DNA of 64,000 bases from Breoghania sp. (GCA_963678585.2 CAXXGA010000001.1:518228-582227), one strand, 5' to 3'. Numbered from the stretch's first letter, positions 60,266 to 62,232 are shown. Made by a program: numbers and translations. Notes: generated from the letters alone by a model not told the origin.

Positions 60266-61426
60266 TCAACCGACCCGCGTGACCCCTTCCAGAAATTCCC
60301 TGAGGTCGGCACGCACCTGCTGGAGGCGTTCCACCTGGGCGGAGAGCGAGCCGGAGGCGTCCAGCACCTGTCCGCCGATTTCCGCCGCACCTTCATTTGC
60401 GGTGCGCACCGCGCTGATGCCGGAGGTAACGCCGCCTGCCCCGCGCGCGGCCTCCTCCACATTGCGGGCGATCTCGCCGGTTGCCGCGGTCTGCTCCTCC
60501 ACCGCGGAAGCGATGGCGTTGGAAATCTCGCTCACCCGTTCGATCGCCTCGCTGATCTGGGCATTGGCCTGCACGGCCGTGCCGGTTGCCGATTGCAGCG
60601 ACATGATCTCGTCGTTGATCTCCTTGGTCGCGCTCGCGGTCTGACCGGCCAGAGCCTTGACCTCGGAGGCGACGACCGCGAAGCCCTTGCCCATTTCGCC
60701 AGCGCGCGCCGCCTCGATGGTGGCGTTGAGCGCGAGAAGGTTGGTCTGGGCCGCAATGTCGGTGATGAGCTGGATGACGACACCGATGCGTTCCGATTTT
60801 TCCGACAAGCCGTCGATCTCCCGGTTCATGGCGTGGGACTTGTCCACCGTGCCTTGCGCAATTTCCGCCGCGCTGATCACCTGCCGGTTGATCTCGCCGA
60901 TGGACTGGGTGAGTTCCTCAGTGGTGGCGGCGACATTGCGCATGTTGGCGGCGGCCTCCTCCGCGCCGGAGGAGACATCAAGAGAGCGGTTGCTGGCCGC
61001 CTCACTGGCGTTCGCCATTTCGCCGGAGGCGGTCTTCAGTTCCGACGTCGCGCCCTCAATCCGCTCAACCGTCTCGTGCAGGCGCTCTTCCAGCCGGTTG
61101 GCGAGGCCGCAGAAATTCTCGTGCCGCTCGCGGAGCTTGTCGGTTACCGTATTGATGCTTCGCGCGGCTTCCGCAAAGGAGCCGAGCATGCCCTGCTCGG
61201 AGATCAGCCTGAAATGCTTGTTCTGGCCCACGTAGTCCAGACAGGCCTTGGATTCGCGCAAGTATGCGTCGGTGCGGTCGATCAGGAGGTTGATGGCATG
61301 CATCAGTTCCGCCGTGTCGCTGCCGTCGTCGATATTGAGAATGCGCGCTTCGAAATCGCCGGCGGCAACCGCCTTGCAGACTTCGGTGGCATGGCGGAGG
61401 TTTGCGCGTTTCGCCCGAAAGATCAT
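60266..61426 (-). CDS. Soluble methyl-accepting chemotaxis protein (HAMP-like repeats plus signalling domain, no TM)
   Basis: [21 protein letters not shown]; hairpin tip [37 protein letters not shown]; no hydrophobic segment; SD AGGA. Confidence 0.9.
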
Positions 61427-61472
61427 CGTTGTCTCGTCCTGTCCAGTGCCGGAAATCCGTCGCCGTTCCCGC

Positions 61473-62027
61473 TTAGGCCGCCGCCCGCAGAGAGCCGCGG
61501 GCCGTCAGCTTTGCGATCAGTTCGTCGTAGGGAAGGCCATGGCGCGAAACGCGGTCGATCAAAAGCTCATAGCCGGCGGCAAGCTGCTCCTTGCCGTTCC
61601 GGTGGCGCGCCTCTTCGGCGAGCACTTCCTGGTAGAGCGGTACGATCACATCGTCGACCACGGAGCGGTTCGGCACGCGGCGGTTGGAATGATAGCCGAT
61701 GATCCGGCCCGCCCTGTCGAAGCTCGGGGTGACATGGGCATAGACCCAGTAGTGATCGCCGGTCTTCGCCCGGTTCAGCACATAGGCGAAGATCTCGTGC
61801 CCAGCCTCGATCGTGTCCCAGAGCAGCTTGAAGACAGCGCGCGGCATGTCGGGATGGCGGATGATGCTATGGGGCTGGCCCATGATTTCCGCTTCGGTGA
61901 AAGCGGCCACCTGCAGAAACGTGCGATTGGCGTAGGTGATGTGGCCCTTCATGTCCGTCTTGCTGACGATCACGTCGTCCTTGTCGAAAAAACGTTCGAC
62001 CCCCGTCAGCGACAACGGCTTGCTCAT
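61473..62027 (-). CDS. Stand-alone Aer-type PAS domain protein
   Basis: [42 protein letters not shown]; SD GGGAG. Confidence 0.88.
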
Positions 62028-62144
62028 TGGCTTTCTCCCGGATTTCCGCTGTTCGGAACGCCCCCACCCGGAGGTTCTCCATCTACGGAATGGGATAATA
62101 TTTTTCCGGCGTAAAATTCTAATAAATCTAATATTACACAATAA

Positions 62145-62168
62145 TACCTAGGAAATAGTATCTAGGTA
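62145..62168. promoter_or_regulatory. Palindromic site in the AT-rich region upstream of the PAS-MCP operon
   Basis: TACCTAG-N10-CTAGGTA. Confidence 0.45.
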
Positions 62169-62232
62169 CACGCGAACCACGAAGCTCTCCCCGGCAGATC
62201 ACGCAGGAGACGTCGCACATACAAGGCGCCTT

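Follow-up and report, generated by a model that had tools for sequence, protein, structure and literature searches.

A probable soluble two-protein receptor of the CetB/CetA type, lacking a membrane anchor, encoded in Breoghania sp.

The analysed window, a stretch of 64,000 nucleotides from Breoghania sp. (GCA_963678585.2, CAXXGA010000001.1:518228-582227), carries two neighbouring genes that encode a small PAS protein (CetB-like) and an MCP (CetA-like). Their features, in window coordinates, are as follows.

62085 to 62170, strand not applicable: AT-rich block upstream of the PAS gene (sequence)
61473 to 62027, minus strand: cetB-like gene, 184 residues, stop codon included (open reading frame and translation)
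61677 to 61997, minus strand: PAS core, residues 11-117 (alignment to E. coli Aer; AF2 pLDDT >90)
61476 to 61673, minus strand: C-terminal tail of the PAS protein, residues 119-184, three helices, conserved (AF2 and conserved columns)
61427 to 61472, minus strand: intergenic spacer of 46 nt (sequence; promoter/terminator scan)
60266 to 61426, minus strand: cetA-like gene for a di-HAMP MCP without transmembrane (TM) segment, 386 residues, stop codon included (open reading frame, Pfam, hydropathy)
61271 to 61423, minus strand: HAMP unit 1, about residues 2-52, with AS1, connector and AS2, and G23, D24, F25 and R28 (Pfam, AF2, 9trk match)
61127 to 61268, minus strand: HAMP unit 2, the "proximal signalling" unit, about residues 53-100 (AF2, conservation in relatives with and without TM segments, 9trk match)
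60395 to 60871, minus strand: MCP signalling domain, residues 186-344 (Pfam MCPsignal)

The two open reading frames lie in different frames and are separated by a stop codon and the 46-nt spacer, exactly at the limits that an earlier note on this DNA had given for the pair. An AGGA/GAG ribosome-binding site precedes the ATG of the MCP gene, and a promoter/terminator scan found no promoter-like or terminator-like site in the spacer. The two genes are likely co-transcribed. The AT-rich block upstream of the PAS gene is nearly free of GC in a genome of 63% GC, and contains a 7-bp inverted repeat, TACCTAG-N10-CTAGGTA. A sigma-70 consensus scan picked up no promoter in this block; it is a candidate promoter or operator of the pair.

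Pfam analysis revealed that the PAS protein matches PAS families alone (PAS_3/PAS, residues 19-113). The motif RHPDMP occupies residues 57-62, and the second motif quoted in the earlier note corresponds to residues 85-95. The closest solved relative is the PAS domain of E. coli Aer (PDB 8DIK), with an E-value of 1.5e-30, followed by full-length Aer, MmoS and NifL. Homologues of 174-185 residues are matched at E <1e-70. The AF2 model, built on 47 homologues with a pLDDT of 90, consists of the PAS core and three subsequent helices (residues 121-140, 145-162 and 167-183). Its top fold match is again 8DIK, with a target-normalised TM-score of 0.94 and an RMSD of 1.2 Å. Judged from these similarities, the protein is a stand-alone Aer-type PAS protein with a helical tail, in agreement with the earlier description.

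Alignment to Aer assigned H53, R57, H58, D60, F66, W70, N85, Y93, W94, V99 and R116 to positions equivalent to the flavin pocket, among which R57, H58, D60, W70, N85, Y93 and W94 bear the same numbering in E. coli Aer. These columns are mostly invariant among the 47 homologues, with H58 and F66 nearly so (at least 90%) and D60 non-conserved. PMC12442639 lists eight FAD-contact residues for CetB2, of which seven recur here, namely H53, R57, F66, W70, N85, V99 and R116, and Ser54 takes the place of an FAD-contacting Asn (Asn55 in CetB2, and also Asn in Aer). By homology, the PAS protein is predicted to bind FAD. Beyond the core, the tail displays the family-conserved motifs PLY, EE.RH.N.K and YDE(F/L), with conserved columns at P130, Y132, E139, K146 and Y167. 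In the alignment, PLY falls at the beginning of the Aer F1 linker.

In the MCP, Pfam matched the signalling domain strongly (residues 186-344, E 5e-33) and a HAMP domain weakly (residues 10-51, E 0.006), and found no PAS domain in the chain. The tip of the signalling hairpin is E244, within the stretch GEMGKGF. The AF2 model (pLDDT 85) begins with a helix (residues 2-21), a loop, a second helix (residues 37-67) and a second loop (residues 68-82), from which a long helical hairpin starts at residue 83. As modelled, this alternation of helices and loops is that of two HAMP units in tandem. A search with residues 8-94 gave three matches to the di-HAMP repeats of the solved poly-HAMP array 9trk with an E-value of 1e-7, in addition to a weak match to Aer2 (PDB 3VOL, E 0.26). 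The helix pattern and the match to 9trk thus bear out the N-terminal HAMP-like repeats noted earlier. The protein starts about seven residues ahead of AS1 of the first HAMP unit, and in the second unit the residues D53, R57, E58, R73, G79, G82 and N92 are near-invariant.

The absence of a membrane anchor, also claimed earlier, holds for this MCP and its orthologues alike. Hydropathy analysis revealed no TM segment in the MCP: the top 19-residue Kyte-Doolittle mean is only 1.44, and is located in the signalling hairpin. A start further upstream that would add a TM segment was ruled out, as the open reading frame is bounded by a stop codon and the PAS gene; it has no room for an upstream extension because the PAS gene occupies that place. 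In 68 loci the orthologous MCP has 380-395 residues and is non-hydrophobic even when read from the earliest possible start, so that a hidden upstream TM start was rejected for these longest possible reading frames as well.

Both proteins have thousands of homologues, the top matches being from Breoghania with 96-99% identity, which places the window in a Breoghania-like member of the Hyphomicrobiales, and the length of the MCP homologues is nearly always exactly 386 residues. Using the PAS protein as the query, we gathered 79 species loci. At about 75 of the 79, a CetA-type MCP gene directly follows the PAS gene on the same strand; the MCP gene lies upstream of the PAS gene in three loci (L007, L014 and L018), and in another (L032) the contig stops 521 nt past the PAS gene. 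Relatives therefore have two open reading frames, a check that the earlier note had suggested, and no fusion of PAS protein and MCP was found among them, which contradicts a recent split or a pseudogene. Across the loci, the intergenic distance ranges from an overlap to 141 nt. The identity to the pair across the ~75 species is 34-79% for the MCP and 53-73% for the PAS protein, spanning several families and even other phyla. The hosts include Roseibium/Labrenzia, Stappia, Cohaesibacter, Maricaulis, Robiginitomaculum, Rhodobium, Rhodomicrobium and Thalassospira, in addition to single metagenome-assembled genomes labelled Polyangiaceae, Bdellovibrionota and Planctomycetota. All-against-all clustering of the flanking open reading frames of 80 loci yielded no third conserved component, but only the PAS and MCP families plus antisense shadow frames, and the module sits in unrelated gene neighbourhoods across the loci. 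Among the genomes of 40 relatives, 13 carry the orthologue, once each, including five of the six other genomes of the genus. As it occurs in seven of 26 genera, counting the window's own genus, its distribution is patchy.

An exhaustive HMMER search of 50%-identity representatives revealed how the MCP relates to membrane-anchored receptors. Beyond the group of 386 residues, the nearest relatives are mostly of 434-436 residues and align from about residue 55-65 to the end. Their extra ~55 N-terminal residues form two hydrophobic helices, that is, a TM hairpin. This hairpin precedes the same di-HAMP in 91 of 126 usable close clusters and is absent in the other 35. The N-terminal signature G23, D24, E26, R28, N46, D50, D53, R57, E58, R73, G79, G82 and N92 is common to the forms with and without the hairpin; in the comparison with TM-anchored relatives that are themselves paired with a PAS protein, G23, R28, N46, D50, R57, E58, R73, G79, G82 and N92 are shared. 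In a Tardiphaga locus (L039), such a TM-anchored relative lies directly behind a PAS gene. By alignment, the transducer of Breoghania begins exactly where TM2 ends in the anchored relatives. As about a quarter of the closest clusters lack the hairpin, the TM-less form is a common natural variant rather than a singular architecture. In a FastTree tree the TM-less forms are scattered, requiring at least 10 changes, with most deep forks unsupported.

The pair invites comparison with several known receptors. In Magnetospirillum gryphiswaldense, CetB2 binds FAD, interacts with CetA2 and sets the position of the aerotactic band (Herz et al. 2025, PMC12442639). This alphaproteobacterium has four CetB/CetA pairs, in which all CetA proteins possess two TM helices and the CetB proteins have 173-175 residues (PMC12442639, Dataset S1). 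The pair of Breoghania resembles CetB2/CetA2, and also CetBA1, 3 and 4, in that a gene for a small Aer-type PAS protein, with 8DIK as the closest PDB match in both cases, comes ahead of a gene for a transducer that lacks its own sensor domain but has a HAMP domain and a signalling domain, which in CetA2 is of the 38H class. They differ in size and anchoring, where the CetA proteins of M. gryphiswaldense have 562-645 residues and two TM helices, some with PilZ or CZB, compared to 386 residues and no TM helix in Breoghania. In addition, the genes overlap in M. gryphiswaldense, but are separated by 46 nt here. In Campylobacter jejuni, CetA, which consists of a TM hairpin, a HAMP domain and a signalling domain, works with CetB; both are needed for energy taxis, and the stability of CetB depends on CetA (PMC2628428). 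This system (Tlp9/Aer2) is likewise a split Aer-like receptor, made of a PAS-only protein and a HAMP-containing MCP encoded by adjacent genes, which are co-transcribed in C. jejuni. However, its CetA has a TM helical hairpin (about residues 6-43), the gene order is cetA then cetB, and the sequences are distant. The C. jejuni pair is the one that defines the bipartite energy-taxis receptors as a family, of which reviews cite 55 pairs in diverse bacteria (PMC2886117).

Compared to E. coli Aer, the PAS domain is homologous, the PLY motif that opens F1 is retained, and lateral signalling from PAS to HAMP is presumed in both. In Aer, however, a TM hairpin links F1 to one HAMP domain within a single polypeptide, whereas here there are two chains without a TM segment, and the MCP has a di-HAMP. 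Identity as a single-chain Aer was rejected on the two open reading frames and the lack of a TM segment. Azospirillum AerC and C. jejuni CetZ (Tlp8) are cytoplasmic FAD-PAS energy-taxis receptors, to which the predicted FAD-PAS protein of Breoghania is comparable; however, their PAS domains (of the PAS_FAD2 class in AerC) are fused in line to the MCP, with no HAMP docking module. The soluble Aer2/poly-HAMP receptors of Pseudomonas aeruginosa and Vibrio cholerae, as well as 9trk, share with our MCP the solubility and the concatenated HAMP units. By contrast, the haem-binding PAS domain of Aer2 sits between HAMP units within the same chain, and Aer2 has a dedicated Che2 pathway. An Aer2-type receptor was also rejected, as the MCP chain has no PAS domain and the separate PAS protein is of the FAD/Aer type. 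The family of bipartite receptors is further marked by sequence: in 2009, Elliott and colleagues reportedly described nine family-specific conserved residues in the HAMP and proximal signalling domain. Every characterised member of the CetB/CetA type has a membrane-anchoring TM hairpin, the feature missing from the MCP of Breoghania.

Taken together, we consider it likely that the pair is a soluble energy-taxis receptor of the CetB/CetA type (Aer-like), made of two proteins. We propose that the PAS protein of 184 residues would bind FAD and adopt a conformation that tracks the redox state of the flavin. It would dock sideways on the N-terminal di-HAMP of the dimer formed by the 386-residue MCP, and perhaps also on the top of the kinase-control bundle, through the contact that E. 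coli Aer uses for its covalently attached PAS domain. A change in the flavin redox state would then alter the packing of PAS on the di-HAMP, and thereby the control of CheA at the tip. The hairpin tip would in this way modulate the single CheA/CheW complex of the cell and control flagellar reversals, and the MCP would more likely be built into the common polar array through mixed trimers of dimers. Signalling in trans from the PAS protein to the MCP is suggested by homology. To carry the function over from CetA, of which all characterised members are membrane-anchored, to a TM-less form is to extrapolate. The scheme also assumes that the sole CheA, an unusual CheA-CheW-REC hybrid beside chpT and ctrA, has a flagellar output.

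The place of the receptor in the cell was addressed with the chemotaxis inventory of the genome, an assembly of 4.6 Mb in four contigs. It encodes 23 MCP signalling domains, but one Aer-type PAS protein and one CetA-type di-HAMP MCP. There are one CheA, one CheW, one CheB and one CheR, all in a single cluster at 2.818-2.825 Mb of contig 2, whereas the pair is on contig 1; the earlier statement that no che genes lie nearby is thus right. The CheA is a hybrid of 913 residues (Hpt-dimerisation-ATPase-CheW-REC), and the whole genome gives one H-kinase_dim match and, as CheW domains, one CheW protein and the domain of CheA itself. From about residue 105 almost to its C-terminus, the MCP can be aligned gap-free with 18 further MCPs of this genome, the majority of them with two TM segments; near the C-terminus MAFFT places a three-residue insertion. 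The arm from the hairpin tip to the C-terminus has 142 residues, compared to 138-141 in the other MCPs. Arm length and the comparison with CetA2 indicate that the MCP probably belongs to the same heptad class as the other MCPs of the genome, 38H as in CetA2. The cluster of che genes (L080, contig 2, 2814000-2832000) adjoins genes for a ChpT-like histidine phosphotransferase and a CtrA-like regulator, as well as fliI/fliJ, an unusual juxtaposition of che genes with those of the CtrA phosphorelay.

The earlier note had favoured a cytoplasmic array, in which the pair would be separate from the membrane array. Such a membrane-free array would accord with the lack of a TM segment in the MCP, and with the existence of a soluble pool, since a crude hydropathy test shows no TM segment in five further MCPs of the genome (six of 23 with no segment above the threshold, our MCP included). 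Cytoplasmic arrays do occur elsewhere, for instance with TlpT/TlpC in Rhodobacter sphaeroides and DosM in Vibrio cholerae. The known ones, however, have dedicated CheA/CheW paralogues and a ParA-like positioning protein, whereas this genome has a single CheA and a single CheW protein, and an array of the R. sphaeroides Che3 or V. cholerae cluster I type was rejected for the lack of such dedicated paralogues. In addition, the MCP matches the membrane MCPs in length class and its signalling domain aligns with theirs, and the soluble receptor AerC, as cited in PMC13401364, joins membrane clusters. We therefore regard a separate array as unlikely and the common array as the more likely location, the latter being the simpler expectation given one kinase, one coupling protein and a matching length.

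Two further readings concern the pair itself. One takes it for a single-chain Aer that has recently split or is decaying, now a pair of pseudogenes without the membrane anchor. All domains of Aer but the TM hairpin are indeed present and in the order of Aer (PAS, F1-like tail, HAMP and signalling domain), but both frames are intact, the pair is conserved in ~75 species, and the MCP length is almost fixed at 386 residues while the intergenic distances vary. Moreover, 15 positions within MCP residues 1-92 are invariant among 55 close homologues, and no fused relative was found, which leaves this reading a negligible chance. According to the other, the two proteins are inherited together but do not signal through each other, the PAS protein for example regulating another target and the MCP serving as a sensor-less array scaffold or sensing through its di-HAMP alone. 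According to the summary in PMC2886117, Elliott et al. (2009) suggested that the partners of a HAMP/PAS pair are able to function independently of each other. CetB5 of M. gryphiswaldense is an orphan (PMC12442639, Dataset S1), and L007, L014 and L018 lack a CetA-type MCP immediately downstream of the PAS gene, having it upstream. Against this stand the near-universal adjacency without a third conserved gene, the one-to-one occurrence of the pair in the genome, and the experimentally demonstrated interaction of the homologues CetB2/CetA2 (PMC12442639), so that we hold it to be quite improbable.

How new the architecture is needs qualification. The conserved, TM-less two-gene module described in the earlier note stands, but its novelty was overstated, since the bipartite family is known in Alphaproteobacteria (PMC12442639). 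Split CetB/CetA receptors and soluble FAD-PAS chemoreceptors are each already known, and because of this the pair leaves the concept unchanged. In the literature searched, we found no description of a CetA-type transducer family free of the membrane anchor, though the lists of Elliott et al. (2009) and Collins et al. (2014) may include TM-less pairs. Possibly, the TM-less pairs constitute a distinct cytoplasmic branch that arose by repeated clean loss of the TM hairpin and relays the redox signal laterally from PAS to HAMP with neither a covalent link nor a membrane, a suggestion that we put forward tentatively and with more doubt than confidence. If so, the sensor would take its reading from a soluble redox pool and not straight from the respiratory chain. 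Given a single CheA, the receptor would either nucleate a cluster independent of the membrane or enter the membrane array from its cytoplasmic side.

The respiratory chain is the presumed input of Aer-type receptors, and all Aer and CetA proteins characterised so far are anchored at the membrane. The pair is a naturally membrane-free and naturally split version of near-fixed length, found in dozens of marine Alphaproteobacteria (Breoghania, Roseibium, Maricaulis, Cohaesibacter and Thalassospira). It offers a soluble, detergent-free system for PAS-to-HAMP signalling in trans, in which both partners could be purified and the two chains titrated against one another, and it lets one ask directly whether energy sensing, or incorporation into the array, requires a membrane anchor.

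Several individual observations accompany these results. Two candidates for a fusion were rejected. One, a relative of 562 residues from a JGI metagenome (P0197), has a duplicated HAMP unit and no PAS domain; its first HAMP-like unit occurs twice, with an acidic low-complexity spacer of ~120 residues in between. This is a natural tri-HAMP variant, or else a product of faulty gene calling. The other, L056, proved from its listing of open reading frames to be two separate genes for 176 and 424 residues. In L007 (235-4525), from a metagenome-assembled genome of Roseibium, two tandem TM-less MCPs of 386 residues, 62% identical to the MCP of Breoghania, lie upstream of the PAS gene, and in L014 (2739-4516) a single MCP precedes it; the gene order of the module is therefore not fixed. 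The MCP match in L004 (4613-5756), from a metagenome-assembled genome of an uncultured Roseibium, is broken into two overlapping pieces in different frames, owing to a frameshift or an assembly error. By the same crude hydropathy test, soluble receptors make up about a quarter of the MCP repertoire of the Breoghania genome, despite the single CheA and the single CheW. Finally, the TM-less transducers begin with Met, a hydrophobic position (in 51 of 68 loci occupied by F, I, L or V), and then Lys, Arg and Ser. This start, at window positions 61400-61426 in the MCP of Breoghania, resembles the residues at the membrane-cytoplasm interface that follow TM2 in the anchored relatives, and may represent a relic of them or act as a weak tag for peripheral membrane attachment.
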